Assembly (NCBI GenBank): GCA_964631145.1
Contig: CAZVXT010000001.1
Location: 457,237-521,236, forward strand
Source of the DNA: an uncultured Candidatus Saccharibacteria bacterium
GTDB lineage: Bacteria; Patescibacteriota; Doudnabacteria; UBA920
DNA: 64,000 bases
Direction of reading: 5' to 3'
Shown here: positions 7,879-62,869 of the stretch, one piece after another
How the letters are laid out: every line of letters starts with the position of its first letter
How positions within the stretch are numbered: the first letter of the stretch is position 1
Position numbers and translations under genes: made by a program
Notes under the pieces: model-generated
Database searches by the model: none
What the model was told of the DNA's origin: nothing
Seen by the model: only the letters and a program-made list of their open reading frames with translations

Positions 7879-7953
7879 TTAGCTAAAGAAAAGAGCGTTC
7901 TTGCAACGCTCTTTTTAATTTTAGATCAAACTATTTGATGTTAAAATAAGGTT

Positions 7954-8547
7954 ATGAATTTTATTAGAAAATATAAAATTATATTAATTTTAATTTTGTT
8001 GTTACTAGTTATCAGCTTAGTGTTATTTTATCCTTATTTTTATGAGCGATATATTAGAAAAAATAATTTACCCAGCTCTCTTAACTTAGATAATTCTAAA
8101 CAGCAAGATAAAGATAATCCTAATGTTTTGCAAATACCAACTCTTGGGATTTCGGCACCTATTAATTATTTAGATCAGCCCGATGAAAGTTTGTTTCAAC
8201 AGTCTTTGCAAACAGGAGTGGTGCATTATCCTGGCAGTGCTAATCTTGGACAAGAAGGAAATGTATATATTTTTGGGCACTCATCTGATTATCCATTTAC
8301 AAAAGGAGAATATAAAACTGTTTTTGCAAAATTACCAGATATAAAATTAGGATCATCTATATTTTTGACAGACAAAGATGGTAAAAAGTATGAGTATCTG
8401 GTTGCTTCAACCAAAGTTGTTGCTAGCAACGATGTTTCTGTACTATCTCAAGATACAAAAGGACAGAGAATGTTAACATTGCAGACATCTTATCCTGTTG
8501 GTACAGCTTTAAAGAGGTTTGTAGTAATTTGTTACTTAAGAATATAA
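7954..8547 (+). CDS. Sortase-family transpeptidase homolog with Ser at the nucleophile position
   Basis: An N-terminal TM anchor is followed by a conserved His (NVYIFGHSSDYP). The TLXTC-equivalent motif reads MLTLQTSYP, and an Arg lies ~10 residues downstream (ALKRFVV). The gene is immediately downstream of the LPRTG protein. Confidence 0.7.
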   Translation: MNFIRKYKIILILILLLLVISLVLFYPYFYERYIRKNNLPSSLNLDNSKQQDKDNPNVLQIPTLGISAPINYLDQPDESLFQQSLQTGVVHYPGSANLGQEGNVYIFGHSSDYPFTKGEYKTVFAKLPDIKLGSSIFLTDKDGKKYEYLVASTKVVASNDVSVLSQDTKGQRMLTLQTSYPVGTALKRFVVICYLRI

Positions 8548-9092: not shown

Positions 9093-9500
9093 TTAAGCTT
9101 TAGTGTCTGGGGCAGATAAAACTTGATTTACCTTTTTTAAAATTTCTTCGGTGTCGTAGTACGCCTTCACCATATATGCTTGAACATTTAAAGCTTTAGT
9201 CTTGAGGATATCTTTATTGCTCCATAAGTTGCTAAGCACTATAATAGGAGTAGAGGCTATTTTTTTATCAGAATGGTGCCTAACTTGTTCTAGAACTTCA
9301 AACCCATCCATTTCAGGTAACATTAAGTCTAACAGTACCAAAGCTGGACCTTCTGAGATAATTTTTTCTAAACCTTCTTTTCCATCACCAGCTTGTACAA
9401 CTGTAAAGCCATTGTTAGATAGTTTATGTGCGACGATTTCTCGCATTGCAATCTCGTCTTCTACGATCAAGATTTTTTTATTTAAGTCTTGGGTTGCCAT
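9093..9500 (-). CDS. Stand-alone CheY-like response-regulator receiver domain
   Basis: KILIVEDE....LLDLMLPEMDGFEVL...PIIVLSN...KAL carries the REC-fold acidic pocket and phospho-Asp context, and there is no output domain. Confidence 0.85.
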   Translation of the reverse strand: MATQDLNKKILIVEDEIAMREIVAHKLSNNGFTVVQAGDGKEGLEKIISEGPALVLLDLMLPEMDGFEVLEQVRHHSDKKIASTPIIVLSNLWSNKDILKTKALNVQAYMVKAYYDTEEILKKVNQVLSAPDTKA

Positions 9501-9533
9501 CTCTTTTTCAATTAATTGTATTATAACATAGGA

Positions 9534-11075
9534 ATGTCAAAAGTAATTGAGTTGAACGGTAAAGATCTTACTATTTCTCAAATAGTTCAAATAATTTCAA
9601 ACAAAAATCAAAAAATAACTATTGCTACCAAATCTAAAAACATCATTGATGCTTCTTTTGCGTTTGTCCAAAAAAGTTTAACTAAAAATGTTATCTACGG
9701 GGTAAACACAGGTTTTGGACCTATGGCGTCCCATATTTTACCAAAGGATAAGCTAATAGAATTACAATATAATCTGATTCGTAGTCATGCTACAGGCATG
9801 GGTAAGCCATTAGATCAGGATGTAGTGCTAGCAGCAATGATTGTGCGTTTAAATACTTTAGTGAAAGGTTTTTCTGGAGTCTCTATAGAATTACTAAAGA
9901 CTTTAGAGAAATTTATCAATGCTAGGATTATTCCATTTGTACCAGAGCATGGCGCTGTAGGGACTAGTGGTGATTTAATTCAATTAGCTCATATCGCATT
10001 AACTTTGATAGGGGAGGGTCAAGTTTGGTATGAGGGTAAGATCCAATCTACAGATAAAGTATTGCTTAAACTAAAAATAAAGCCTCATAAATTATTTCCT
10101 AAAGAAGGGTTATCTTTGATTAATGGTACTTCTGTAATGGCTGGTGGGGCAGCATTGGTTTGTAATGATGCTAATAAGTTAATACAGAGCTCAATTTTGA
10201 ACGGAGCTGAGTCTTTAGAGATTGTAAATTCGTATAGCGATAGCTTTGATGAAGTTCTTCATCAGCTTCGTCCTCAGCAAGGGCAATCGCAGGTTGCACA
10301 AACTTTGCGTAGTTTATTAAAAGATTCCAAACTAATTAGGCAAAGAGAAAGCTTAACTTACCAAGATAGTTTTAACCAAGGTGTTACTAAAATTGACGAT
10401 AGGGTACAAGAAGTATATTCACTTCGCTGTATACCTCAGATTGTTGGTCCCATATTAGATACTTTGCAAAAGGCAGAAAAAGTTGTAGAAGTTGAATTGA
10501 ATTCTACAACAGATAACCCTATTGTGGATGTTAAAAATAAAAGATTTTTGCATGGTGGAAATTTCCATGGGGACTATATTGCTGTGGCTATTGATCAATT
10601 AAAAGCTTCTTTGGTTAAATTGTCAATGCTATCTGAAAGAAGAATTAATTTCTTTTTAAATCAGAATATAAATAAGATTTACCCACCATTTTTAAATTTG
10701 GATACGCCGGGCTTAACATTGGCTTTGCAGGGTTTGCAGTTTGTAGCTACATCTACTACTGCTGATAATCAGTCTTTGGCTTTTCCGCATTCAGTTCATA
10801 GTATTAGTACAAACGCTGATAATCAAGATGTTGTAAGTATGGGCACTGATGCAATGTTATTTGCAAGACAAGTAGTAGAAAATTGCTACATTGTTACTGC
10901 AATTGAAAATGTTGTTCTTACTCAAGCTGTTGATGTTTTGAATTTTTCAAATAAGCTATCCAGCTCCACTAAGCAAAATTACAAAGCAGTTCGCAAGGTT
11001 TTTCCAGTTGTTATATCAGACAAACCTTTATTTAGCCTTTTGCCAAAAGTCATTGATTTATTAAAGCATGAATAA
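9534..11075 (+). CDS. MIO-dependent aromatic amino-acid ammonia-lyase (HAL/PAL/TAL family; HAL-like)
   Basis: YGVNTGFGPMAS..IRSHATGMGKPL.. ..IPFVPEHGAVGTSGDLIQLAHIALTLIGEG.. match the family. The MIO-forming triad position reads Thr-Ser-Gly rather than Ala-Ser-Gly. The six-frame ORF track begins at a TTG at 9516, but the ATG at 9534 is more plausible. Confidence 0.85.
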   Translation: MSKVIELNGKDLTISQIVQIISNKNQKITIATKSKNIIDASFAFVQKSLTKNVIYGVNTGFGPMASHILPKDKLIELQYNLIRSHATGMGKPLDQDVVLAAMIVRLNTLVKGFSGVSIELLKTLEKFINARIIPFVPEHGAVGTSGDLIQLAHIALTLIGEGQVWYEGKIQSTDKVLLKLKIKPHKLFPKEGLSLINGTSVMAGGAALVCNDANKLIQSSILNGAESLEIVNSYSDSFDEVLHQLRPQQGQSQVAQTLRSLLKDSKLIRQRESLTYQDSFNQGVTKIDDRVQEVYSLRCIPQIVGPILDTLQKAEKVVEVELNSTTDNPIVDVKNKRFLHGGNFHGDYIAVAIDQLKASLVKLSMLSERRINFFLNQNINKIYPPFLNLDTPGLTLALQGLQFVATSTTADNQSLAFPHSVHSISTNADNQDVVSMGTDAMLFARQVVENCYIVTAIENVVLTQAVDVLNFSNKLSSSTKQNYKAVRKVFPVVISDKPLFSLLPKVIDLLKHE

Positions 11076-12591
11076 TGATAATTTTAATTGGTTAGACAAA
11101 CAGTTTGATTACAAGAAGCATCTGGCAATTGAAAATCGTATTAACCAATTTGAATATAAGCAATACCAAAAAACCTTCCAATCTGTAAGCTCAGAAGAAA
11201 TAGAAAAGCATAGCTTTAAAAGAGCTTTATCATTTTTTAAGTACGTAAGTAAGAATGTGCCTGCCTATAAGGATTTTTTGAAAAAGAATAAAATAGATCC
11301 TGAAAAAATACAAAATCAAAATGATTTTAATCTAATTCCATGGACAGACAAAGAAAATTATATTTCTAAATATAGTTTAGAGGATAGAAGCTTTGGCGGA
11401 GGTAACTTAAAAAATAATTTAATAGCCATAAGTTCTGGCACCACAGGCAATCCAACCTTATGGGCTCGCAGTGCATACCAAGAGTATGAGGCTTTTGTTT
11501 TTCATCAAAAATTGTTTATTGATCAATTTGAAGTTCATAAAAAAACAACTTTAGTTTTGATTGGCTTTCCAATGGGTGTGTATGTTTCGGGGATAGCGAC
11601 ATTATTGCCTACTTGGCTATTAACCCAAAAATACCCAGGACTATCAGTGGTTAGTGTGGGAAATAACAAAGCTGATATGCTGAAGGCAATGGAGCAGCTA
11701 AGTTATTCTTATGATCAGACTATTTTGGTTGGACATCCATTTTTTTTGAAAGATGTTATAGAAACTGCCACCGCTAGAAAAATAAAGCTAGACAAATTTA
11801 ACATTAGCTTAATGTTTTGCAGTGAGGGGTTCTCTGAAGATTGGCGAGAGTATGTTTCATCTGTTTTAAATCCTAAAGGCAAGGTAAAAGCAATTAATAC
11901 CTACGGCTCATCAGAATTTTTATTAATGGCTAATGAAAATCAGAGGACCATTGATTTTAGAAAGGCTGTTAATGGCACAGCTCTTGGTGACAAGCTTTTT
12001 GGTAGTCGTAACGTGCCAAGTTTATTTGAATACAATCCTTATCATAGATATTTGCAAGAAAGCAGTAATGGGGAAATTCTTTGTACAGCAGTTAGTGGTG
12101 TTCCTCTTATAAGATATAATATGCACGATGCTGGAAAAATTATTTCTGCCCAACAGTTTAATTTGTATAGCAGGCAGTTAAATTTGAAACCGACGAAATC
12201 AAATTTACCTATAGTGGTTTTGCAAGGTAGGAGCGATTATGGTGCTGTTTTTTATGCGGCGAATATTTATCCTAATAATATCCATGCTGCATTACAACAC
12301 GATAAGTTATTTAAAAAATTAACAGGTAAGTTTTCATTAGAAAAAAAATATAAAAATAATATGGATGAAGATTTGGTCATTCATATAGAATTGCAAGACA
12401 AAGCCTTAGCAAATAAAGACCTTCTAAAATTTATTAAAGATAATGTAATAAAAACTTTATCATCTTTAAATTTAGAGTATCAATTTTTGCAAAAGAATTT
12501 GGATAAAAACATTGATCCTAAAATAAAACTCCATGCTTATCAACACCCCAAATATTTTAAGCCGGGATTAAAACCAAGATACATTGTATAA
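11068..12591 (+). CDS. PaaK-like adenylate-forming ligase (phenylacetate-CoA ligase / CoF390-synthetase-like, ANL superfamily)
   Basis: The AMP-binding P-loop SSGTTGNPT and the PaaK-like IPWTDKENY motif are present. The gene overlaps the upstream lyase by 8 nt. Confidence 0.7.
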   Translation: MNNDNFNWLDKQFDYKKHLAIENRINQFEYKQYQKTFQSVSSEEIEKHSFKRALSFFKYVSKNVPAYKDFLKKNKIDPEKIQNQNDFNLIPWTDKENYISKYSLEDRSFGGGNLKNNLIAISSGTTGNPTLWARSAYQEYEAFVFHQKLFIDQFEVHKKTTLVLIGFPMGVYVSGIATLLPTWLLTQKYPGLSVVSVGNNKADMLKAMEQLSYSYDQTILVGHPFFLKDVIETATARKIKLDKFNISLMFCSEGFSEDWREYVSSVLNPKGKVKAINTYGSSEFLLMANENQRTIDFRKAVNGTALGDKLFGSRNVPSLFEYNPYHRYLQESSNGEILCTAVSGVPLIRYNMHDAGKIISAQQFNLYSRQLNLKPTKSNLPIVVLQGRSDYGAVFYAANIYPNNIHAALQHDKLFKKLTGKFSLEKKYKNNMDEDLVIHIELQDKALANKDLLKFIKDNVIKTLSSLNLEYQFLQKNLDKNIDPKIKLHAYQHPKYFKPGLKPRYIV

Positions 12592-13795
12592 TATAAATAT
12601 GATAAAAACTCCCAAGTGGTTAAAAGTTGCTGATATAAATACAAAACCTGTTGTTCAAATTTTTGATTTGCAAAAATTATATAACCAAAGCAAAATTGAA
12701 GAGATTATAAAAATAAATAAACCACATATCATTGATACATATACAGAGCAGTTAGAAGACTTGTATTTGGTTAGGCATCCATTTTTAAAAACACAACCCG
12801 ATAAAGCGCATCTAGAATTATCAGAACATATAGGGCAAATTTCTAAAAATCCATTATGGATGCAAGGCAGTTGGATTTTTTTACCGTGGAGTAATAGTTT
12901 GATTCATTTGTTATCAAATACAGATTATTATGAGTTGCGCACTTCAAGAAATAAAAATTTAATTACAAGTTTGGAGCAAAATAAAATTAAAAAATCTAAA
13001 ATCGGAATTGCCGGTTTGAGCGTTGGTAATGCTGCCGCCGTAGGTGCCGCTTTAGAAGGCTTTCAAAATATTAGAATTGCTGATTTTGATAATTTAGCTG
13101 TAGTAAATTTAAATCGCATTCGAGCTGGTATTACAGATTTGACTGTTAATAAAAGCTATATTACCGCAAAGCAGATTTATGAAGTTGATCCATACGCAAA
13201 AGTTGATATTTATCATCAAGGTTTGAATGGTAATAAGCTAGAGCAGTTTATTAAGGATTTGGATGTTATGATTGATGAGATTGATGATGTGGAAGTAAAA
13301 ATTAAGCTTAGACAATTAGCTCAAAAATATAAAATTCCGGTAATTTCTGCTGCTGATAATGGCGATGGGGTTATTGTAGATATACAAAGATTTGATCTTA
13401 ATAATAAATATCCAATTTATCATGGAGACTTACACGAAACCAAACTTGATAGTATAGCCAAAATGGGATTTGGATCAAAGATAAAATTAATTAATGAAAT
13501 GGTGGGTATAGAGTACGTGACCGATAGGATGAAACAATCTTTGCTTGAAGTAGGGAAGAGTTTATATTCTTGGCCTCAGCTTGGCGGTGCTGCAATGATA
13601 ACTGGCGGGGTCTTGGCTTATTTAGCAAAAGGAATTGTGCTTGGGCATGATTTGCAAAGTGGTAAGTATGATTTTAACCCTGACTCAGTATTTATAAAAG
13701 CATTTAATTCTGCCAAGCAAAAAGCCCAGCGTAGAGCTGGTACAAAGAAGTTTTTGAAAACTCAATCAGAAATTTTTAATTTTAAAGTAATTTGA
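12584..13795 (+). CDS. E1-like ThiF/MoeB/MccB-family adenylyltransferase with ~130-aa N-terminal extension
   Basis: A Rossmann GxGxxG motif (KIGIAGLSVGNAAAVGAALEGF) is followed by IRIADFDNLAVVNLNRI, the E1 Asp/Arg motif. The gene overlaps the upstream ligase by 8 nt. Confidence 0.75.
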   Translation: MYNINMIKTPKWLKVADINTKPVVQIFDLQKLYNQSKIEEIIKINKPHIIDTYTEQLEDLYLVRHPFLKTQPDKAHLELSEHIGQISKNPLWMQGSWIFLPWSNSLIHLLSNTDYYELRTSRNKNLITSLEQNKIKKSKIGIAGLSVGNAAAVGAALEGFQNIRIADFDNLAVVNLNRIRAGITDLTVNKSYITAKQIYEVDPYAKVDIYHQGLNGNKLEQFIKDLDVMIDEIDDVEVKIKLRQLAQKYKIPVISAADNGDGVIVDIQRFDLNNKYPIYHGDLHETKLDSIAKMGFGSKIKLINEMVGIEYVTDRMKQSLLEVGKSLYSWPQLGGAAMITGGVLAYLAKGIVLGHDLQSGKYDFNPDSVFIKAFNSAKQKAQRRAGTKKFLKTQSEIFNFKVI

Positions 13796-14847
13796 TGATA
13801 CAAAAAGAGGTTTTAGTAAAAATTATTACAGCGGGTGGACACGCTCCTTCAGGCGATAACTGCCAGCCATGGTCTGTTCGTTTGTATGACGATGGTTTTG
13901 CTCTATACAACTTACCTGATAGAGATAACTCTTTGTATAGTTTTGGGCAACGGGCTTCTATGGTTGCTTTAGGGGCTTTTATAGAAAACTGCCTTATTAA
14001 GGCAGCTGATTTGGGTTATAAAACAGATATTAAATATTTCCCTGATGGTGAAGACAGTGATTTGGTGGCTTATTTAAATTTTGAGATAAATAACGAAAGC
14101 TACGGAAACGATTTGGCTAGATTTATAGAGCAAAGAATAACAAATCGTAAAATGTATCTAGGGCAATTAGTCGAACCTCTAAAAGTTGACAAACTTTTAC
14201 AAACTAGCGATTCATTAAAGTTGGTTAGTGAGAAGTCTATGATTAATCAGCTTGGACAAATCGCTAGTATCAATGAGAGGATTTTATTTGAAAATCAGCA
14301 GATGCATAGTTTTTTTTATAACCATATAAATTGGACCGAGGAAGAAGATATAAATAAAAAAATTGGCTTTTATTTACCGACCTTAGAAATTCCTAAAAAT
14401 AAGCAATCGGGCTTTAAGTTATTTAAGCATTGGTTGGTGTGTAAAACCTTGAATGTGTTACTAGGTTTTTCTAAGATATTAGCTAAAGAAAATTCTAAGG
14501 TATATGGCTCTGCTTCAGCAATGGGTATTATTACCATTAAAGATTATAGTAAGCTTGGGTATATTAAAGCAGGACAAGAATTTCAGCGAGTTTGGCTACA
14601 AGCGACAGAACTTGGTTTAAGCTTTCAGCCTTTAACAGGAGTGCCATTTTTAAAGCTACGAATCGATAATAATAAAGCAGGAGAGTTAAGCCTTACACAT
14701 CAAAAATTAGTTAACGATGCTTATTTATCGATACAAAAAATTTTTGAGACTAATGATAGGGTGGCGATGATGTTTCGTTTAGGTTACGCAGACTCGCCAT
14801 CCGCACATTCTCGTCGTTTTAATGTTTTAGATATAATTCAGTCATAA
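13792..14847 (+). CDS. Nitroreductase-superfamily oxidoreductase, apparently two-domain (SagB/McbC-like dehydrogenase candidate)
   Basis: The N-terminal AGGHAPSGDNCQPW matches the nitroreductase PS..N.QPW signature. At 351 aa it could hold a tandem fold. A 4-nt ATGA overlap links it to the E1-like gene. Confidence 0.7.
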   Translation: MMIQKEVLVKIITAGGHAPSGDNCQPWSVRLYDDGFALYNLPDRDNSLYSFGQRASMVALGAFIENCLIKAADLGYKTDIKYFPDGEDSDLVAYLNFEINNESYGNDLARFIEQRITNRKMYLGQLVEPLKVDKLLQTSDSLKLVSEKSMINQLGQIASINERILFENQQMHSFFYNHINWTEEEDINKKIGFYLPTLEIPKNKQSGFKLFKHWLVCKTLNVLLGFSKILAKENSKVYGSASAMGIITIKDYSKLGYIKAGQEFQRVWLQATELGLSFQPLTGVPFLKLRIDNNKAGELSLTHQKLVNDAYLSIQKIFETNDRVAMMFRLGYADSPSAHSRRFNVLDIIQS

Positions 14848-14848
14848 A

Positions 14849-16513
14849 ATGGGTATAGATTTTGGAACATTTGCAAATATTGATTTATTAATCATTGGTA
14901 TTGCGATTGCGGGTATCGCTATTTTATCAATGGTTGTGTACTTAAATAATAGAAGAAGTATTACCGCTAAGTCCTTCTTGTTTTTTGCATTGATGACAAT
15001 CGCATATGGTGTTATAAATTTTTCTTCTAGCAAATTCATAGATCATGATCTTGCATTGTGGAGTTTACGTTTAACTTTATTTAGCGCAGTATGGCATGCA
15101 TTTTCTTTGTATCAGTTATTTGTGGTGTTTCCTTTGGAGCAAACGAGTTATGATTGGAAATACAAGTATATAGCTGTTCCCGCTACTATTATTGCTTCTC
15201 TTTTAACTTTAACACCATTAGTATTCTCTGGGATTAGTCAAGAGATTGCTTTTGGGCAAGTAGCAAATCCAGAAAAAGGCCCTGGTATTGCACTATTCGG
15301 TTTAGTCGCATTTGGTTTGGTATTCTCGGCTTTGTATGTGCTGATAAATAAGGTTAGAAATTCTCAAAGTTTAGAAAAGAAACAGTTAAGCACTGTCTTA
15401 ACTGGCACAATTTTTACTATGATGTTAATTTTTGTGTTTAACTTTGTCTTGCCAGTTTTTTATAATAATACTCGTTATGTACCGCTAGCACCTCTTTATA
15501 TCCTACCGTTCATAGCTTTCACGACTTACGCTATAGTTAGACACAAACTATTGGATATTAAAATAGTTGGAACAGAAATTTTAGTATTTGTCCTAGCGGT
15601 TACATCTTTAATCGAAGTTATTATTTCACAAAATTTTGGCGTTTTGTTTTTTAGAAGCAGTGTATTTTTACTAGTTTTGGGAGTAGGTGGTTTGTTGGTT
15701 AGCAGTGTGTTTAAGGAAGTTAAACAGAGACAAGAGTTGGAGATTTTGAGTACAGATTTAGCCAAGGCAAACGAAAAACTAAAATCTTTGGATAAAGCAA
15801 GGGCAGAATTTATCTCAATCGCTAGTCATCAACTAAGAACACCTCCAGCTACAATTAAATGGTATATGTCAGCAATTTTATCTGGCGACTTTGGTAAAAT
15901 ACTCCCAGAAACTTTACCAGCATTGCAAACAGTACAAGTAACTAATGATGCTCAGATTTCTACTATTGATGACTTGCTTAATGCTTCCAGGATTGAGCGA
16001 GGTAAGCTGGAATTCTTTTTTCAACCAGGCGTGATCGAGCCAATAGTACAAAATCTGGTTAATCAATTACAACCTTTGGCACAAATGAAAAAGTTGCGCA
16101 TTAATTATCAGCCACCAAAGACCACAATACCAGAGTTTATTATGGATCAGGAGAAGATTCGCCAGGTAATAAATAATATGATTGATAATGCTATTAAATA
16201 CACTAAACAAGGGGATATTGATGTAAAATTGGTTCGAAATAGAGACGGGGTTACGCTTAGTGTTTCTGACCAGGGCAAAGGTATTAGACAAGAGGATGTG
16301 AAGAAGTTATTTGCTAAATACTCCAGAGGACAAGATTCTGCTACTCAAGCAACTGGGCTAGGTTTGGGGATGTATGTTGCTAAGGTTATAGTAGAGCAAC
16401 ATAATGGAAAGATTTGGGCAGAGAGTGCGGGGCTCGATAAAGGTTCTACTTTTTCTTTCTTTATTCCATCAAAGAATAATTTAAAAGCAACTACTTTTGA
16501 TTTAACTAAGTAG
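14849..16513 (+). CDS. Sensor histidine kinase with ~7-8 N-terminal TM helices
   Basis: H-box ASHQLRTPP, N-box NMIDNAIKYT and G-box GLGLGMYVAKVIVEQHNGKIW are present. The start is 2 nt after the nitroreductase stop. Confidence 0.85.
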   Translation: MGIDFGTFANIDLLIIGIAIAGIAILSMVVYLNNRRSITAKSFLFFALMTIAYGVINFSSSKFIDHDLALWSLRLTLFSAVWHAFSLYQLFVVFPLEQTSYDWKYKYIAVPATIIASLLTLTPLVFSGISQEIAFGQVANPEKGPGIALFGLVAFGLVFSALYVLINKVRNSQSLEKKQLSTVLTGTIFTMMLIFVFNFVLPVFYNNTRYVPLAPLYILPFIAFTTYAIVRHKLLDIKIVGTEILVFVLAVTSLIEVIISQNFGVLFFRSSVFLLVLGVGGLLVSSVFKEVKQRQELEILSTDLAKANEKLKSLDKARAEFISIASHQLRTPPATIKWYMSAILSGDFGKILPETLPALQTVQVTNDAQISTIDDLLNASRIERGKLEFFFQPGVIEPIVQNLVNQLQPLAQMKKLRINYQPPKTTIPEFIMDQEKIRQVINNMIDNAIKYTKQGDIDVKLVRNRDGVTLSVSDQGKGIRQEDVKKLFAKYSRGQDSATQATGLGLGMYVAKVIVEQHNGKIWAESAGLDKGSTFSFFIPSKNNLKATTFDLTK

Positions 16514-17847: not shown

Positions 17848-17880
17848 TGACACATATTGTTGATTTGCTATAATAACTAC

Positions 17881-36677: not shown

Positions 36678-36680
36678 ACC

Positions 36681-36709
36681 TTGACATTATAAAATTTTTA
36701 TGACATAAT
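36681..36709 (+). promoter_or_regulatory. Sigma-70-like promoter of the 'TATGAtAAAAT' family
   Basis: TTGACA-17nt(TTATAAAATTTTTATGA)-CATAAT, then a GGAGGA RBS 8 nt before the ATG at 36738. Confidence 0.6.
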
Positions 36710-36737
36710 GTCAATAATAAATTCAGGAGGATATTTT

Positions 36738-37502
36738 ATGAATTCGAAAGAAATAAATCAAGAATCTATTGAGGATTCAATTGTTAAAATTAATAATATT
36801 AAATTTCTTAGACGAGCTGCGATTACAAAGCAGCAAGAATCATTAGATCTATTTCGTCAGTCTAAAAATTTGCTACGTGAGTTAATTGATGATATTAATT
36901 CTGGTATTACTACTACAGGCGACATATCTAAAGATTGGTGCTTGGCAAATTATCACGATGTAGAAACTAGTGATATAGATATTTTTGAATTATTTAAATC
37001 TATAGAAAAATTAAAGCAAAAATTTATCAATAATACAGGAAAGTTGATTTGGATTATTGGAATCGAACAAACCCCTTTTAATGATTATATTGAGTCTCAT
37101 GTATTAGGCAGATTAATAGATAGTGATTTTAAACTATCTTATATTGGTGCTCGTTTAGATCTGCAATACGCAGATCTAAGTTTTCCAATAAAAAATTTTG
37201 TGATGATTAGCGGTTCTAAAAATGGACCTTATCATGCTAATGGAGTTAGTATTACTTTAACAATTGGCGAGACTCATAAACAATATTCCTTTGATCTAAC
37301 TAAGTTTGGTAAAAACTGTAAGCATTTGCCACCTTTGCGGTATCTAAATGAAGGGTTCCCTATAGAGCGTGTATGGTTAGAAGTAATTATCGGAGAAGAA
37401 AGTATAGATGAGTGGATAGTTTTTGCTGATAAAACTTCCTCAGACAGTTATTACAGGAGCATAATGGATAAATTAAAATCCGCTCTAGATAATCTAAAAT
37501 AA
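36738..37502 (+). CDS. Hypothetical protein
   Basis: The start was reassigned to the ATG with a GGAGGA RBS; the track's upstream ATG would read through the RBS. No domain was recognised. Confidence 0.5.
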   Translation: MNSKEINQESIEDSIVKINNIKFLRRAAITKQQESLDLFRQSKNLLRELIDDINSGITTTGDISKDWCLANYHDVETSDIDIFELFKSIEKLKQKFINNTGKLIWIIGIEQTPFNDYIESHVLGRLIDSDFKLSYIGARLDLQYADLSFPIKNFVMISGSKNGPYHANGVSITLTIGETHKQYSFDLTKFGKNCKHLPPLRYLNEGFPIERVWLEVIIGEESIDEWIVFADKTSSDSYYRSIMDKLKSALDNLK

Positions 37503-37538
37503 ATATTATGATGTCAATTATAAATTTAGGAGGACTTT

Positions 37539-37910
37539 ATGAGTAATATACTTGTTATTTTTAAAACCGACACTTTTAATAAAGGATCATATAACTGTTT
37601 AAGTTTTATGAGTTGGGAAAATTCTATCACACCTTCTGAAGCAATAAACTCTTGTTTAAACGGAACATGGAAAAATTCTTATATAGCAGGTAATTTTGAG
37701 CAATTAAAGCTGATGCTAGAAAAAGAAGTAATTCGTAGAAAGATCAAACGCGAAGATCTAATTTTAAGCCCAGTTCAAATTATTACAATCCCTGCCCCAT
37801 TTATGAGTATTAGTATAAATTCAGAAAATCAACCTGTTAACACAATATGCCAACCTATAAATACAGCAGAGCTGCAAAATTTAGGCGAAATTATAAACCA
37901 TCTTTTATAA
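37539..37910 (+). CDS. Hypothetical small protein
   Basis: A GGAGGA RBS ('ttaggaggactttATG') precedes it; no domain was recognised. Confidence 0.45.
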   Translation: MSNILVIFKTDTFNKGSYNCLSFMSWENSITPSEAINSCLNGTWKNSYIAGNFEQLKLMLEKEVIRRKIKREDLILSPVQIITIPAPFMSISINSENQPVNTICQPINTAELQNLGEIINHLL

Positions 37911-38299: not shown

Positions 38300-39583
38300 A
38301 TGCAATACGCATTTGTTTTGGGTAGGGTCCATACTCTATCAATAGCAGAAATATTTTTTTATTTTCAAAAGCAAAATATAGCTTTACGGGTGATTGATAT
38401 GTCCCCTGAAGTTTTGATTATCGATACAGATAGTCAGATTGATTTTCTTAAAATTCAAAAAGAACTTGGTGGGGTTGTTAAAATTTTGAAAGTCATAGAT
38501 GAAGTTAAGAAAAAAGAAACTGATTATCTTAACTTTGCTTTGCAAAATTACTTTAAGCCTAGCAAGTTAAAAAACGACTTTTTAAAAAACGCTAAAGGTA
38601 AGCTTCAGATTGGCATTAGTGTTTATTTATTAGACTCTACTGTTAAAGCTTTTGGTGAACCAAAGCGTATTGGTATGTTTATTAAGAGGTCTTTGCAGGA
38701 TGCTGGTTCTATTATTCGTTTAGTTTTACCTCAGTTTAATGGTTTGGCTTTGCCTTCGGTATCTGTTACGCATAATCATTTATTAGAAAAAGGTGTGGAA
38801 ATTTGTATTCTTGCTGCTAACAAAAAGGTTTATGTGGCTAAGACATTGGTTGTACAAGCTTTCGAAGACTATGGGCGCCGTGATTATCAAAGACCTGTTC
38901 GCGATGACAAGCAAGGAATGATACCTCCAAAAGTTGCTCAGATGATGATTAATTTTTCTGGAGGTAAAATTGGCGAGACTTTATATGATCCTTTTTGCGG
39001 TATTGGGACAATTTTACAAGAAGGTATACTGCTTGGATATAGATTTTTAGGCACGGACCTTAACCCGATTGCTATTTCTGGTAGTGAGAAGAATTTAGAA
39101 TGGTTTAGAAATCGATATAAAATCCCTAAAGGAAAATATCATGTAGAGGTTAGTGATGCAATAAAATGCAATCACATTGTAGAAAACCTCAAAACTATAG
39201 GGGCTTTTAGTACTATCTCCGGGATTGTCACAGAGGGTTATTTGGGACCTATGTATACCGAGTTTCCAAAATCAGATGATATTGAAAAGAATTTTAATGA
39301 TCTAAAACAATTATATACTGCTAGTTTTCAAGAATTTTTAAAGTTTTTACCTACTGGTGGGCGTGTGGTTTTGTGTATTCCTGCTTATAAAAAACGCGAT
39401 AATTATACCCTTTTTCCTTATATTGACGATTTGCTTCAAATTGGCTATAATTTGATAGACTTAATTCCTCAGAATTTAGCTCAAAATGTACCTTTTTTGA
39501 AGCTCACAGAGCGTGGTACTGCCATATATGATCGTAAGGATCAGATTGTGGCGAGAGAAATAGTCATCTTTGAAGTTAAGTAA
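38300..39583 (+). CDS. THUMP-like domain + class I SAM-dependent RNA (N2-G / N6-A type) methyltransferase
   Basis: ..KVAQMMINFSGGKIGETLYDPFCGIGTILQEG..GTDLNP.. matches the DPFCGSGT-type methyltransferase motif. Confidence 0.65.
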   Translation: MQYAFVLGRVHTLSIAEIFFYFQKQNIALRVIDMSPEVLIIDTDSQIDFLKIQKELGGVVKILKVIDEVKKKETDYLNFALQNYFKPSKLKNDFLKNAKGKLQIGISVYLLDSTVKAFGEPKRIGMFIKRSLQDAGSIIRLVLPQFNGLALPSVSVTHNHLLEKGVEICILAANKKVYVAKTLVVQAFEDYGRRDYQRPVRDDKQGMIPPKVAQMMINFSGGKIGETLYDPFCGIGTILQEGILLGYRFLGTDLNPIAISGSEKNLEWFRNRYKIPKGKYHVEVSDAIKCNHIVENLKTIGAFSTISGIVTEGYLGPMYTEFPKSDDIEKNFNDLKQLYTASFQEFLKFLPTGGRVVLCIPAYKKRDNYTLFPYIDDLLQIGYNLIDLIPQNLAQNVPFLKLTERGTAIYDRKDQIVAREIVIFEVK

Positions 39584-45209: not shown

Positions 45210-45314
45210 ACTAGATAATTATACCATAATAGCATATAGGTTGAAAATTTGTGACGGTTGTGTTATATTATTTGGTGCTTAAATAAAGCATTGATCACAA
45301 ATTTTTGGAGGAAA

Positions 45315-53423: not shown

Positions 53424-53840
53424 ATGAAAATTATACTTTTGATGTGTCTATTATTTTTATTAAACGGGTTAATATCTCTGTATTTACTACCGATAATCAG
53501 ATATAAAATTTATTGGCATAGATATACCTATTACCAACATTCAAATGATATGTATTTTGATAAAAAATATGAATTTGGCAATTTCTGCTTAGCCATTCTG
53601 TTTCCTTATCAATTTTTTGATGGCGACAAATTAAGTAGTTTTAGCTATTCGTTTGGAGGTGGCGAAATTTCTAATTACAACAATTACGCAGATATGAAGA
53701 AATCATTTAATTCTGAAAATGTTGTAATATGGTATTTATTTTCCGTAAGTTATTTTCTATCTTGCTTGTTATGGGCATCATTTGCATTTGTATTCATAAA
53801 AACAGCTAAAGTTGTTGCTAAGTTACTTTATGCATCTTAA
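53424..53840 (+). CDS. Hypothetical small membrane protein (3 TM) inserted between nusG and rplK on the opposite strand
   Basis: It has a strong RBS and its own promoter and terminator. Confidence 0.5.
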   Translation: MKIILLMCLLFLLNGLISLYLLPIIRYKIYWHRYTYYQHSNDMYFDKKYEFGNFCLAILFPYQFFDGDKLSSFSYSFGGGEISNYNNYADMKKSFNSENVVIWYLFSVSYFLSCLLWASFAFVFIKTAKVVAKLLYAS

Positions 53841-54794: not shown

Positions 54795-55325
54795 ATGGAA
54801 GATTATTACCAATATACTTTTTTGATTTTAACTAGTTTAATAGGAATCGCACTCAATGGCTTTATTGGACTTTCGGTTATACCTCGTTTAAGATGGTTTG
54901 TGTTAGTAAAATTGTCAGATAAGGTTAATACTTTTGAAAGCAAACTTAGTTTTTGGGATAAATTTGTTATTTTATTTTTATTCCCAGTCAATTCTTACAG
55001 TATTTTATTGGATTGTGAAGAATTAGCAAAAATTAAAAATTTTTGCCTAAATAAATATTTAGATGCAAACACTTACGATGATTTTAAAAATATGCATAAC
55101 ATACTTGGAAAAGCTGTTGCTTATATATTTGCGTTTCCGACCTACTTATTTTTATTGCTAGTAGTTTCCCCTATTTGTTGGTTATTTGTATATATTATCA
55201 TTTCCTTAGATTGGACGATCAAGTTAATCGGCAATTTTTTATCCAGTTTTGGATTTAAATTTACGTTTAGATTTGATCAGAGTATTTTAAGTAAACAAAA
55301 TTTGCAAAAAGAAAAAGAAAAATAA
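54795..55325 (+). CDS. Hypothetical multi-TM membrane protein
   Basis: The start was reassigned. The track's ORF begins at the TTG of the -35 hexamer TTGACA. Confidence 0.5.
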   Translation: MEDYYQYTFLILTSLIGIALNGFIGLSVIPRLRWFVLVKLSDKVNTFESKLSFWDKFVILFLFPVNSYSILLDCEELAKIKNFCLNKYLDANTYDDFKNMHNILGKAVAYIFAFPTYLFLLLVVSPICWLFVYIIISLDWTIKLIGNFLSSFGFKFTFRFDQSILSKQNLQKEKEK

Positions 55326-55417: not shown

Positions 55418-57502
<2,085 letters not shown>

Positions 57503-57563
57503 TCAATATTTAAAGGATTATTTAGTACTTATATTTTACCATAACCACGCAGGTTTTTATACT

Positions 57564-57596
57564 TGACAATACATGCATTTTATGATAAAATATAAT
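57564..57596 (+). promoter_or_regulatory. Sigma-70-like promoter (TTGACA-N17-TATGATAAAAT family) + conserved leader ATTTCGGAGGAAA
   Basis: TTGACA-17nt(ATACATGCATTTTATGA)-TAAAAT/TATAAT; the RBS is TTTCGGAGGAAATTATG. Confidence 0.6.
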
Positions 57597-57626
57597 GGTT
57601 TTTTAAAAATTATTTCGGAGGAAATT

Positions 57627-57974
57627 ATGTACCCATATGATGATAAGTTATTAGAAAAAATGAAAAAGACAGATCGTTGTAAATTTTATTTTTGTAATAA
57701 GTTAAAAATAAATTTCTTTGTGATTGACTATTTCCCTCAAGGAGATGTGCATGTTGAAAAAATACCAGCCCTGGTCGCAAACATGAAAAATGTAGAAAAT
57801 ATAGCTCATGATTTCTGTGAAGCAACAGGATTTGATTTTTCAACTATGAATATCTCAATAATCAAACAATCTCACTTTATGAAAGATTTTAAAGTTTTAT
57901 GGTCTTCTACTAAAGATCAAATCCCTTTTAATAAATCTCTTGAGGTTGATGGCTTTTGGGAGTATGTAAAATAA
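57627..57974 (+). CDS. Hypothetical small soluble protein (115 aa)
   Basis: The start was reassigned to the ATG 7 nt after GGAGGA; no domain was recognised. Confidence 0.45.
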   Translation: MYPYDDKLLEKMKKTDRCKFYFCNKLKINFFVIDYFPQGDVHVEKIPALVANMKNVENIAHDFCEATGFDFSTMNISIIKQSHFMKDFKVLWSSTKDQIPFNKSLEVDGFWEYVK

Positions 57975-57977
57975 GGT

Positions 57978-58005
57978 AAAGCGGCAAATAACCGCTTTTT
58001 TATTT
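57978..58005 (+). terminator. Intrinsic terminator
   Basis: AAAGCGGCAAATAACCGCTTTTTTATTTT. Confidence 0.7.
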
Positions 58006-58014
58006 TATGCATTG

Positions 58015-58043
58015 TTGACATGCTTGGTCAAAATTGGTTAAAT
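58015..58043 (+). promoter_or_regulatory. Sigma-70-like promoter + conserved leader ATTTCGGAGGAAAA
   Basis: TTGACA-17nt-TTAAAT; the leader ATATTTCGGAGGAAAATTATG is nearly identical to the one at 57610. Confidence 0.55.
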
Positions 58044-58068
58044 ATAAAAAATATTTCGGAGGAAAATT

Positions 58069-58578
58069 ATGTCAGATAAAAAAGATAAACCGCATATTAT
58101 TTATGATAAATATAGCAATCTAGAAGATTGTAGTGTTTCTGTTGATAGTAATCTAGAACTTGCAGAGTATTTGACTTTGAAACCTGGTGTTAACATTTCT
58201 TTATTAATAAGTGAAGAGATTAGTGGCGAGCCGATCTGTTATATAGATCTGTTTGAGACTAGTAAAAATAATTTAAGTGAAGATGAGGGTTATTTGCAAA
58301 TTAAAATGAAAGATTTGGTTAATGTAAATTTATTTCCTCATCGGCTATTATTGGATATAAATTCGTATTTCGATGCACCTGGAGCAATAGAGACCTGGCT
58401 TGCATCCTGCATCCAAGATTATTTTAAAAATTATTCTAAAATTATAGTTAAACTTTACGATGCTAGCTTTTATCAAATTATTTTAAAAATTGGCGAATAT
58501 GAAATTTCTAGCGACAAAATTGAAACAAAAATTTTAGCTCAATTTTTTGAAATTGATAGAGAACGGTATTTTTCTTAA
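58069..58578 (+). CDS. Hypothetical acidic soluble protein (169 aa)
   Basis: It has a strong RBS; no domain was recognised. Confidence 0.45.
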   Translation: MSDKKDKPHIIYDKYSNLEDCSVSVDSNLELAEYLTLKPGVNISLLISEEISGEPICYIDLFETSKNNLSEDEGYLQIKMKDLVNVNLFPHRLLLDINSYFDAPGAIETWLASCIQDYFKNYSKIIVKLYDASFYQIILKIGEYEISSDKIETKILAQFFEIDRERYFS

Positions 58579-58588
58579 TCTATAACAA

Positions 58589-58616
58589 AAGCCTAACAAA
58601 TGTTAGGCTTGTTTTT
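58589..58616 (+). terminator. Intrinsic terminator (copy 1 of duplicated terminator sequence)
   Basis: AAGCCTAACAAATGTTAGGCTTGTTTTTTATC is identical to the hairpin at 59456-59486. Confidence 0.7.
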
Positions 58617-58631
58617 TATCAATTTTTACAT

Positions 58632-58660
58632 TTGACAAATTTGTATATTTATGATAAAAT
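58632..58660 (+). promoter_or_regulatory. Sigma-70-like promoter (TTGACA-N17-TATGATAAAAT family)
   Basis: TTGACA-17nt(AATTTGTATATTTATGA)-TAAAAT, then TTGGAGGAAAGTATG. Confidence 0.6.
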
Positions 58661-58693
58661 AATATAGTTTTCAAAATTTCATTGGAGGAAAGT

Positions 58694-59104
58694 ATGATGT
58701 TTAAAAAATCTATTCGAGTTATTTTGTCATTTGGTTTGTTGGGGTTGTTTTTGCCAAGCTTTTTGTATTTATACATAAACAATAAGATTGAGTTAAGAAC
58801 AGCCGGACAAATTTATGGTGTTTTGTTACTCACCGTATTTTATATCGGTTTGATGTATGTGTTTATTACAAATGCCTTCAAAACTTCACAACAGGCTAAG
58901 TGGATTCTTTCTTTTTCAGTAGGATTAAATTTATGCCCTATTGGAACTGTTACCACTGTTGCAGGATTAGTTTTATTTGTAATGGGTCAGGTTTATGCGC
59001 CTTTGGTGGTGTTGCTTGGACAAGTTATTTTGATCCCAGCATGTCTTGCCCTTGTTAATAGGGGCTTTATACCAAATGTGTTAAATAGATATTTATACAA
59101 TTAG
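58694..59104 (+). CDS. Hypothetical small membrane protein (4 TM)
   Basis: The start was reassigned: the track's TTG start is the GGAGGA RBS. Confidence 0.45.
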   Translation: MMFKKSIRVILSFGLLGLFLPSFLYLYINNKIELRTAGQIYGVLLLTVFYIGLMYVFITNAFKTSQQAKWILSFSVGLNLCPIGTVTTVAGLVLFVMGQVYAPLVVLLGQVILIPACLALVNRGFIPNVLNRYLYN

Positions 59105-59131
59105 GTCTAACCTAAAACAGAGGATAAATCT

Positions 59132-59440
59132 ATGAAAAGAATAATGTGTTTAAGTATTTTTATTTTGACTTTTTCTTTAAGTGTTGTTCTCGGACAAGCT
59201 CGTAATACCACTGCTTCAGAAGCTTCTGATCAATATATATTGATAGCTCGATTAGTTAAAAGCAATGAATTACTTAAAGAACAAGTTAAATCTTTGCAGA
59301 GTCAAATTGATATGTGCGCTGTTGAAGCTTGCCATCAGAACGATGATGAAAATATAACGTCAGCCTTTAATGTAGGCATGGCTTTTGGATTATTGGCAGG
59401 GCTGCTTATATATATCTTGTATAGAATATTTCTCACTTAA
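59132..59440 (+). CDS. Hypothetical small secreted/C-terminally anchored protein (102 aa)
   Basis: It has an N-terminal signal-like segment, a C-terminal TM and an RBS 'acagaGGAtaaatctATG'. Confidence 0.4.
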   Translation: MKRIMCLSIFILTFSLSVVLGQARNTTASEASDQYILIARLVKSNELLKEQVKSLQSQIDMCAVEACHQNDDENITSAFNVGMAFGLLAGLLIYILYRIFLT

Positions 59441-59455
59441 TTGAAGAGAATATTA

Positions 59456-59486
59456 AAGCCTAACAAATGTTAGGCTTGTTTTTTTA
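59456..59486. terminator. Bidirectional intrinsic terminator (copy 2 of duplicated terminator sequence)
   Basis: AAGCCTAACAAATGTTAGGCTTGTTTTTTTATC; it also terminates pheS, which converges from the minus strand. Confidence 0.7.
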
Positions 59487-60623
59487 TCTTAGTTCTGCAG
59501 AAAATACTTCTGCGGTTTTTTTGTATACTTCGTCTTGGATTGGATCTATTTCTGATGCTTCTAATGTTCTTTCATTGCTTCGATATAAAATTCGGTAAGT
59601 ATAGCTCATTCTGTCTGCACCAAATTTCGCATCATTTTCATACTTATCCGTTAACTGAACTTCTTCTACTAGATCTCCCCCAATATCGCGAATTAAATCA
59701 AAATAATCATTTGGTGTAAAGTTTTTTGAAACAATAAATGAAATATCTCGAATTACTGGAGGAAACTTAGAAACCTCTACAAATTTTTGTCCAAGCTTTA
59801 GCTGCTTCTTTACTCTTTCGTCTTCGCTCCAGAGTAGTCGGATGTCAGGTAGTTCCATGCTGATAATTGCTAAGCGTTCTAGACCAAAACCAAAGGCCCA
59901 GCCAGTATATTGCTTTGGATCTAGTCCTAACTTCTCTAACACACTTGTTTGAACAAGTCCTGCTCCAAGAACTTCAATCCATTTACCATCTTTATCAACT
60001 TCCATTTCTAGAGAATCGTACGTGTAAGGGAAGGTGTCGTCATTAAATCTATATTTGATATCTTCACCGAAAATAGTTTTGGCGATTTGTGCTAGAACTT
60101 CTTTAAGTTCATCTTGCTTAACTTCGCCTTGGTTAACCGGTCTAAGATATAGTCCATCCATTTGATGGAAAATATTCATATGATTACGATCGATCTCATC
60201 TTTACGATATACCTTACCGTGGCATAAAACTTTAATCTCTTGGTTATCTTTAATCTTTGCTACTATTTGAGGTTCTCTTAAATAGTAATACCACATTACT
60301 GTTGTGTGTGGGCGAAGAATATAATCTTCATTTATAAAATAGGTATCAGATTTGCTGCGTGCAGGATGATCTGGTGGAAAATTAAACAAGTCAAAGCTCT
60401 GGCTGACCGGGACTATTTCCGGGACATTTGCTATATCAAAACCTTTAAAGATATCTAGTGACTTAATTCTGTTTGCAAGTTCTGCTATTGGACCATCGGA
60501 CTTTCGCGATAAGTCGGACATGTCCAAATAACGCTTAATTCTGATGCTTTCTGCATTGGATTTTGCTTTAACTTCTTGAAGTAAGCTTTCTGTTTCTGGG
60601 GAAGTAATTATAATGTCTGACAT
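59484..60623 (-). CDS. pheS: Phenylalanyl-tRNA synthetase alpha subunit
   Basis: Motif 2 region (..FPPDHPARSKSDTYFI..) and motif 3 (..GWAFGFGLERLAI..) are present. Confidence 0.95.
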   Translation of the reverse strand: MSDIIITSPETESLLQEVKAKSNAESIRIKRYLDMSDLSRKSDGPIAELANRIKSLDIFKGFDIANVPEIVPVSQSFDLFNFPPDHPARSKSDTYFINEDYILRPHTTVMWYYYLREPQIVAKIKDNQEIKVLCHGKVYRKDEIDRNHMNIFHQMDGLYLRPVNQGEVKQDELKEVLAQIAKTIFGEDIKYRFNDDTFPYTYDSLEMEVDKDGKWIEVLGAGLVQTSVLEKLGLDPKQYTGWAFGFGLERLAIISMELPDIRLLWSEDERVKKQLKLGQKFVEVSKFPPVIRDISFIVSKNFTPNDYFDLIRDIGGDLVEEVQLTDKYENDAKFGADRMSYTYRILYRSNERTLEASEIDPIQDEVYKKTAEVFSAELR

Positions 60624-62862: not shown

Positions 62863-62869
62863 GCATTAA

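Follow-up and report, generated by a model that had tools for sequence, protein, structure and literature searches.

A probable lineage-specific islet of orphan genes, wired in part by locally copied expression signals, at the gyrB–pheS junction of a Patescibacteria genome

We describe a small group of genes in a 64,000-nt stretch of an uncultured bacterium deposited as Candidatus Saccharibacteria (positions 457,237 to 521,236 of contig CAZVXT010000001.1, assembly GCA_964631145.1; hereafter the window), where the interval between the core genes gyrB and pheS holds four short open reading frames (ORFs), O1 to O4. The interpretation that we favor, with a probability of about 65%, is that these ORFs form a lineage-specific islet of orphan genes, approximately 1.92 kb long (57563-59484), that occupies a variable junction between core genes and consists of three units, each with a sigma-70 promoter, a Shine–Dalgarno (SD) sequence, and a terminator, the assembly of which was helped by local duplication of such signals. 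On this interpretation the islet is not a regulon, an integron, a phage remnant, or a recognizable toxin/immunity set.

The gyrB–pheS interval spans 1,996 bp (gyrB, 55418-57487; pheS, 59484-60623; both on the minus strand), and its contents divide into three expression units, P1-O1-T1, P2-O2-T2, and P3-O3-O4-T4, where P and T denote predicted promoters and terminators (Table 1). The initial annotation of this DNA had placed four plus-strand ORFs here; their placement and the lengths of O1, O2, and O4 were reproduced, with O3 being one residue shorter than the 137 amino acids (aa) first given, and the division into two soluble and two membrane proteins agrees with the distribution of hydrophobic spans (none in O1 or O2, four in O3, two in O4). 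The terminators said to separate the ORFs are found between O1 and O2 and between O2 and O3, and not between O3 and O4. Because the 27-nt gap between the latter two contains no terminator and O4 is preceded only by a weak GAGGA (59120-59124), we regard O3 and O4 as one operon. Public gene calls for O1 give 130 and 133 aa, starting from an ATG within the P1 spacer (57573-57626); these are probably too long, and the 115-aa form agrees with the position of the SD sequence.

Table 1. Coordinates of the predicted features of the gyrB–pheS interval within the window.
Feature	Position	Strand	Description
gyrB core promoter	57529-57544	-	extended -10 TTATGGTAAAATATAA, TAAAAT hexamer 57533-57538; islet left edge
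P1	TTGACA 57563-57568, N17, TAAAAT 57586-57591	+	TG before -10; 11/12 consensus positions
O1 SD	57617-57621	+	GGAGG, 5 nt 5' of ATG; duplex energy -9.5 kcal/mol
O1	57627-57974	+	115 aa, soluble, pI 6.8, without hydrophobic spans; only self match
T1, intrinsic terminator	57978-58004	+	-10.7 kcal/mol
P2	TTGACA 58015-58020, N17, TTAAAT 58038-58043	+	TG before -10; -10 weaker than in P1 and P3
O2 SD	58058-58062	+	GGAGG, 6 nt 5' of ATG
O2	58069-58578	+	169 aa, soluble, acidic pI 4.6, without hydrophobic spans; only self matches
T2, terminator, repeat copy 1	58588-58617	+	-12.7 kcal/mol; terminator-like on the minus strand too
P3	TTGACA 58632-58637, N17, TAAAAT 58655-58660	+	TG before -10; 11/12 consensus positions; P1 paralogue
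O3 SD	58684-58688	+	GGAGG, 5 nt 5' of ATG
O3	58694-59104	+	136 aa from first ATG, four hydrophobic spans, pI 9.8; only self match
O4	59132-59440	+	102 aa; N-terminal signal/anchor segment, polar middle, C-terminal membrane span
T4, terminator, repeat copy 2	59455-59484	+	-12.7 kcal/mol; T-run overlaps pheS stop codon 59484-59486; islet right edge

Under codon models trained on the Pfam-positive genes of the window (mean 0.23, standard deviation 0.05, minimum 0.12), the in-frame log-likelihood ratio per codon is 0.17 for O1, 0.22 for O2, 0.09 for O3, and 0.13 for O4, and the ORF's own frame scores best in all four cases. GC content at first codon positions (GC1) exceeds that at second and third positions (GC2 and GC3) in O1 to O4, as in real genes, and across 500 shuffles of the islet the longest ATG-started ORF had a mean length of 55 codons and never exceeded 123, compared with the 169 observed. 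Because of these codon scores, the GC1 pattern, the shuffle result, and a promoter, SD sequence, and terminator that lie in register with the frames, O1 to O4 are real genes with the coding style of their host. Their GC content is 28-33%, versus 36-39% for gyrB and pheS, in line with a window-wide difference between Pfam-less and Pfam-positive genes (means of 30.4% versus 35.0%, p = 2e-6).

The host belongs to the Patescibacteria and is Parcubacteria/Paceibacteria-like; a search of 185,579 species representatives with pheS gave best matches of 71% identity, from uncultured Patescibacteria assemblies labeled Doudnabacteria, Yanofskybacteria, Giovannonibacteria, Parcubacteria, Minisyncoccia, and, in many cases, Saccharibacteria. 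In a comparison set of 80 related species/loci, pheS is followed by gyrB on the same strand in 62, with secE-nusG further downstream, and the order pheS, gyrB, secE, nusG is conserved. Among these 62 loci the median pheS–gyrB gap is 176 bp; 38 gaps are shorter than 300 bp, nine measure 300-600 bp, and 15 are 600 bp or longer. Where the junction is empty (~130-220 bp), it contains only the pheS terminator and the gyrB promoter, and occupied junctions carry differing ORFs that are common only to sister species. In relatives with an empty junction the gyrB -10/start region is recognizable, their TATAAT-TTAAGTAC matching TAAAAT-ATAAGTAC in the window. Neither tblastn nor six-frame tblastx found a match to O1, O2, O3, or O4 in the 80 relatives, and the islet DNA itself is 100% identical in three Logan assemblies and in the 653,896-bp NCBI contig. 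Nearby junctions vary as well: the gyrB–secE gap has a median of 770 bp in relatives, and the nusG–rplK gap, usually under 200 bp and shorter than 300 bp in 32 of 42 loci, reaches 2,020 bp and is occasionally occupied. Because the junction in relatives is either empty or differently filled, and the neighboring junctions behave alike, we read the islet as a likely insertion into one junction among several that vary recurrently. The original suggestion that these are accessory and not core genes is supported: the flanks are syntenic, the islet is absent from the junction in all 80 relatives, its GC content is low, and O1 to O3 match only themselves.

In the window, two plus-strand membrane ORFs of 26-27% GC flank secE-nusG, one at 54795-55325 between gyrB and secE and the other at 53424-53840 between nusG and rplK, where it breaks a usually tight cluster.

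The promoters of the islet are of a general type, and two of them are closely related to one another. All three TTGACA-N17 promoters were found as first placed, with the -10 element of P2 weaker than had been implied, and the sites at 36682, 53358, and 54741, where similar signals had been said to recur, are real. Each unit has the elements expected of sigma-70 transcription and SD-led translation: a TG before the -10 element, a 17-nt spacer, GGAGG 5-6 nt from the ATG, and a hairpin followed by a T-run. Thirteen intergenic promoters in the window agree with the consensus at 11 or more of its 12 positions; six of them drive Pfam-less ORFs and seven drive conserved genes (secE, a sigma-factor gene, an SLT lytic-transglycosylase gene, an aminotransferase gene, yceG, an EVE-domain gene, and rplI). 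Among these, the sigma-factor gene is laid out just as the islet units are, with TTGACA-N17-TATAAT, a 29-nt leader, and AGGAGG. The islet promoter accordingly reads as the general sigma-70 consensus, shared with core genes. Within this class, TTGACA-N16-18-TAAAAT is matched in the 64 kb by P1 and P3 alone (0.17 expected), and these two are the most alike among 91 promoter-region pairs (score 18, versus a mean of -3.5 and a standard deviation of 6; 0 of 2000 shuffles reach 18), aligning over ~80 nt from ~10 nt 5' of the -35 element down to the ATG. The 13-mer TTATGATAAAATA, with at most one mismatch, occurs at three sites in the 64 kb, namely P1, P3, and, inverted, the gyrB -10 region, which is an inverted near-copy (15/16 identical) of the -10 region of P1. 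The divergent gyrB and P1 -10 regions thereby form a 16-nt inverted repeat (57529-57544 versus 57580-57595; 35 nt apart), which could have arisen simply by duplication of a promoter or could be an operator that both promoters share.

The terminators likewise include a duplicated pair. T2 and T4 share an exact 30 nt, comprising hairpin and T-run (z about -4), and their flanks are unrelated; the identical 33-nt repeat of the initial annotation is thus a duplicated terminator, as described, that is exact over 30 nt and can be stretched to ~33 nt only by tolerating a 1-nt difference in the T-run. The hairpin measures 22 nt, with a perfect 9-bp stem and a 4-nt loop followed by the T-run, and it closes two of the three units. 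The proposal that expression signals had been copied therefore survives in part, given the ~80-nt likeness of P1 and P3 and the 30-nt identity of T2 and T4, in the form of local duplication rather than of dispersed cassettes; the impression of cassettes would come from neighbor-to-neighbor duplication of resident signals and not from a mobile cassette dispersed through the DNA. The hairpin sequence of 22 nt, AAGCCTAACAAATGTTAGGCTT, also occurs in 21 metagenome contigs (31-43% GC) that are otherwise unrelated to the window, always between an A-tract and a T-tract. We considered a dispersed repeat element as an explanation and rejected it, since the 21 contigs share the hairpin and the A- and T-tracts only; the sequence appears to be a bidirectional terminator reached by convergence.

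Two further observations concern termination near pheS. Inside the 3' end of pheS, at 59495-59515 on the plus strand, lies a second hairpin with a T-run (CTGCAGAAAATACTTCTGCGG TTTTTTT; -9.9 kcal/mol, z = -3.3), which might act as a reserve terminator, limiting antisense read-through into pheS, or might be due to chance. Read on the minus strand, T2 (58589-58610) is terminator-like and T4 (59456-59477), beside pheS, has a poor T-tail; speculatively, pheS transcripts might run antisense over O4 and O3 until T2.

In the scheme that we propose for the islet, transcription of each unit would begin at a sigma-70 promoter of the housekeeping type that has an extended -10 element. The predicted 5' leader, ~20-28 nt long, is AT-rich and unstructured and has GGAGG at 5-6 nt from the ATG; each unit would end at an intrinsic terminator, and these terminators would probably prevent antisense transcription into pheS. 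We infer that the predicted signals are functional and that expression is constitutive. Small genes unrelated to one another would come and go repeatedly at this junction in related species, and local copying would have built part of the signals, with one 13-16-nt sequence serving as the -10 region of gyrB, P1, and P3. Duplication of the 30-nt terminator would have left P3-O3-O4 bracketed by its two copies, an arrangement that fits either insertion of P3-O3-O4 by recombination at a pre-existing bidirectional terminator that once abutted pheS (a presumed order of insertion) or a recent local duplication. The products would be two soluble proteins and a membrane pair, the four-span O3 and the small O4 with its hydrophobic ends. 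Genomic islands in Patescibacteria are reported to import phylogenetically ambiguous, novel sequences, with about one quarter of genes unique to one genome (PMC12455944).

An alternative source for such a patch would be a mobile element or phage, of which the islet would be a remnant, or an integron-like array using the repeated hairpin as a recombination site. Absence from relatives, low GC content, the shared direction of all four ORFs, and the exact 30-nt direct repeat around P3-O3-O4 would all be explained in this way. However, the genes called near the islet include no integrase, transposase, or recombinase, the window contains no tRNA gene, and no recombinase domain is recorded for the called genes at ~1-34 kb and 39.6-64 kb or for the genes at 35-39.6 kb, which were scanned separately; the immediate surroundings are gyrB, pheS, secE, nusG, and a tRNA-binding-domain gene. 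Phage and plasmid records searched with the islet (blastn), phages searched with O4 (tblastn), and IMG/VR searched with O1 to O4 yielded no match, and PHROGs gave nothing significant. In addition, the hairpin is a plain stem-loop with a T-run whose 22-mer acts as a terminator sequence in unrelated contigs, the units have promoters of their own, unlike integron cassettes, and codon use is host-like. We regard a mobile origin of this kind as quite unlikely.

The leaders raise a different possibility, namely that promoter and leader together define a dedicated regulon or cassette family, with a special cis-element co-regulating small accessory genes. The leader TTTCGGAGGAAA has two exact occurrences in the window, one before O1 and one before O2 (0.28 expected at one mismatch or fewer), and O3 has the variant TTTCATTGGAGGAAAG, so that the near-identity of leaders noticed at the outset is exact for two genes and approximate for the third. 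GGAGG leaders are moreover a minority in the window, preceding 10 of 74 genes, and seven of these 10 are Pfam-less ORFs (7/21 Pfam-less versus 3/53 other genes; Fisher p = 0.004). P1 and P3 are clearly related, and a second case of neighboring unannotated ORFs with a copied leader exists elsewhere in the window: the leaders at 36708-36731 and 37511-37534 are 22/24 identical (ATGTCAAT[A/T]ATAAATT[C/T]AGGAGGA) and precede adjoining Pfam-less ORFs of 254 aa (36738-37502) and 123 aa (37539-37910), next to a methyltransferase-like gene (38300-39583). On the other side, the conserved columns are the -35 element, the extended -10 element, and the SD sequence, all of them generic; core genes have equally good promoters, the sigma-factor gene repeats the whole layout, and gyrB shares the same -10 sequence. 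Folding of the leaders is no more stable than that of shuffled sequences (z from +0.5 to +1.3), none of them matches an Rfam family, and beyond generic signals the likeness is limited to neighboring pairs, as local duplication would give. A special promoter/leader family, as initially proposed, is thus not upheld. The opposite case, in which promoter and leader are simply what most genes carry, applies to the promoter and fails for the GGAGG leader, present as it is at only 10 of 74 genes. We give the regulon little credence.

The distribution of SD sequences is of some interest in itself. Approximately 15 of the 74 genes have a TATAAT-like hexamer 5-11 nt 5' of the ATG, a spacing that suggests leaderless mRNAs, and the remaining genes have neither this hexamer nor GGAGG; examples of the former lie at 36678-36686 (minus strand, aminotransferase), 45210-45218 (minus strand, ftsE), 17869-17874 (plus strand, yceG), and 62863-62869 (minus strand). 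Counted per gene across the 80 relatives, an SD sequence precedes 1.2% of widely conserved and 15.5% of lineage-restricted ORFs. Counted per family, the association with lineage restriction is not significant in the same relatives (0/10, 2/14, 1/24, 7/54, and 70/424), which also speaks against a regulon. The enrichment of SD sequences on Pfam-less small ORFs is suggestive for this window only. Our literature search found no paper on SD usage or initiation modes in Patescibacteria.

The proteins themselves resemble nothing that we could identify with confidence. O1, O2, and O3 each match only themselves among 5.8 billion protein clusters, and an exhaustive HMMER search of 1.84 billion representatives with O2 returned O2 and a single 2043-aa protein, a candidate homology that we rejected, its E-value being inflated by six identical copies of the 43-residue match. 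A PDB sequence search gave no match for O2 and, by phmmer, a borderline C-type-lectin match for O1 (9kpl_A, E = 1.3e-3 over 65 residues), with no Pfam family at E <= 1. Single-sequence AlphaFold models were too poor for use for both proteins (predicted local distance difference test, pLDDT, of 50 for O1 and 31 for O2), and a Foldseek search of the PDB with this low-confidence O1 model found only generic beta-beta-beta-alpha-beta matches at E > 0.05. Among the unannotated ORFs of the window, O1 resembles the 254-aa ORF at 36738 (26% over 84 aa, pairwise E = 3e-5), and the membrane ORFs of 138 aa (53424-53840) and 176 aa (54795-55325) resemble each other (24% over 111 aa, pairwise E = 4e-4); these weak similarities may hint at old paralogy and prove nothing. 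For O3 and O4, our best guess is a strain-specific role at the envelope or in interaction with a partner or phage.

A set of small and diverse ORFs, individually promoted and placed at a variable site, does recall toxin/antitoxin, toxin-immunity, or anti-phage defense genes (the initial annotation had spoken of immunity or toxin-like gene collections), and O2 is a small acidic cytosolic protein, as are many immunity proteins; both points are ones of resemblance only. However, scans of O1 to O4 and of four similar ORFs with Pfam, PADLOC, PHROGs, and NCBIfam gave nothing significant, the best sub-threshold defense matches being BrxB (E = 0.016, 13 bits) and SLATT_5 (E = 0.017, 14.6 bits versus a cut-off of 60), and the resemblance therefore finds no backing in PADLOC, Pfam, or NCBIfam, where all matches fall far below the cut-offs. 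T1 and P2 part O1 from O2, which consequently would not be a co-transcribed pair, the O3-O4 operon encodes two membrane proteins, and no toxin-domain protein or secretion-system gene adjoins the islet. A role of this kind seems very unlikely to us. Least credible of all is an origin de novo, or by divergence past recognition, in an expression-ready intergenic region beside duplicated resident promoters: the lack of detectable homologues of O1 to O3 in very large databases, the low GC content, signals copied from resident ones and not imported, codon statistics that are host-like yet at the low end, and the very low AlphaFold confidence for O1 and O2 are all compatible with it, but the empty junction of ~130-220 bp leaves 1.9 kb of DNA to be accounted for, no similar DNA or six-frame match was found elsewhere in the window or in relatives, and four long ORFs on one strand at 28-33% GC imply maintained reading frames.

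Several points weigh against the lineage-specific islet that we favor. Its promoters, start sites, and terminators are predictions from matches to consensus sequences; no DNA from which the 1.9 kb could have come was found in the window or in relatives; and no evidence backs any function for its proteins. The large-database search covered O1 to O3, and O4 was compared only with relatives and with viral and phage data. The three other assemblies, being 100% identical, offer no polymorphism from which selection or presence/absence could be judged. Finally, the genome is ~654 kb, the analysis covers the 64-kb window, and statements at the scale of the genome are extrapolations.

As it stands, the islet is an accessory patch of a common kind, with no new system or mechanism, although the proteins themselves are new, and it is only mildly unusual, in its demonstrable local copying of signals and in the concentration of canonical SD sequences on unannotated small ORFs. 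It adds to the large pool of small, relative-less proteins in the Candidate Phyla Radiation (CPR)/Patescibacteria, from which it is set apart by being unusually cleanly delimited and by having intact, readable signals. It thereby provides a test case of ~2 kb for how symbionts with reduced genomes gain and wire up new genes and for whether such proteins are expressed, and also for whether SD-dependent initiation is reserved to one gene class where most genes have no SD sequence. A broader idea, which we hold tentatively and consider rather unlikely, is that core-gene junctions in an SD-poor CPR lineage act as expression-ready landing or birth sites, where new ORFs would be wired by copied modules with a preference for canonical SD sequences while most core genes are leaderless or non-SD. 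The copies would run from the gyrB -10 region to P1 and on to P3, from T2 to T4, and between the paired leaders at 36708 and 37511. If this idea is true, genes that are young or acquired could be recognized in such genomes by their SD leader.

Two other regions of the window merit mention in passing. A cluster at 9093-16513 contains genes for a response regulator, an aromatic-amino-acid-lyase-family protein, a 507-aa Pfam-less protein, a ThiF/E1-like protein, a protein with a faint nitroreductase fold, and a 7TM histidine kinase; the pairing of ThiF with a putative nitroreductase recalls azole-forming peptide-modification clusters. At 4285-8547, a gene for a 1,197-aa surface protein with SdrD_B/SpaA-like repeats is followed directly by a sortase gene, and its product is likely a sortase-anchored adhesin or pilin in a CPR genome.

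Among known systems, integron arrays resemble the islet in their small, unrelated, same-strand ORFs and in a repeated hairpin at cassette ends; the islet differs in that it has no integrase, a 22-nt perfect stem-loop with a T-run that occurs only twice, and promoters of its own. Integron attC sites are imperfect palindromes of 57-141 nt found at the end of each cassette, and the cassettes are promoterless. The orphan immunity-gene arrays of polymorphic toxin systems, and toxin-antitoxin pairs, are alike in being rows of small, diverse, lineage-specific ORFs, whereas the islet shows no family match and no adjoining toxin or secretion gene, and its O1 and O2 are predicted to be transcriptionally insulated. 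With regard to translation, the window, in which 10 of 74 genes have GGAGG, ~15 the hexamer, and the rest neither, is like genomes of mixed initiation, for which leaderless, non-SD, and SD classes were defined in GeneMarkS-2 (PMC6028130). It differs in the suggestive enrichment of its SD class for Pfam-less small ORFs, which was not confirmed at the family level in relatives. In cultured bacteria, comparative genomics has described horizontal-transfer hotspots, which hold small strain-specific islets between conserved core genes, without mobility genes. The islet shares with these hotspots, and with the genomic islands of Patescibacteria (PMC12455944), conserved flanks, a junction that is mostly empty and elsewhere holds different cargo, low GC content, cargo without known function, and the absence of an integrase; it differs from them in its size of 1.9 kb and in the resident-style signals carried by each unit, some of which are demonstrably local copies.

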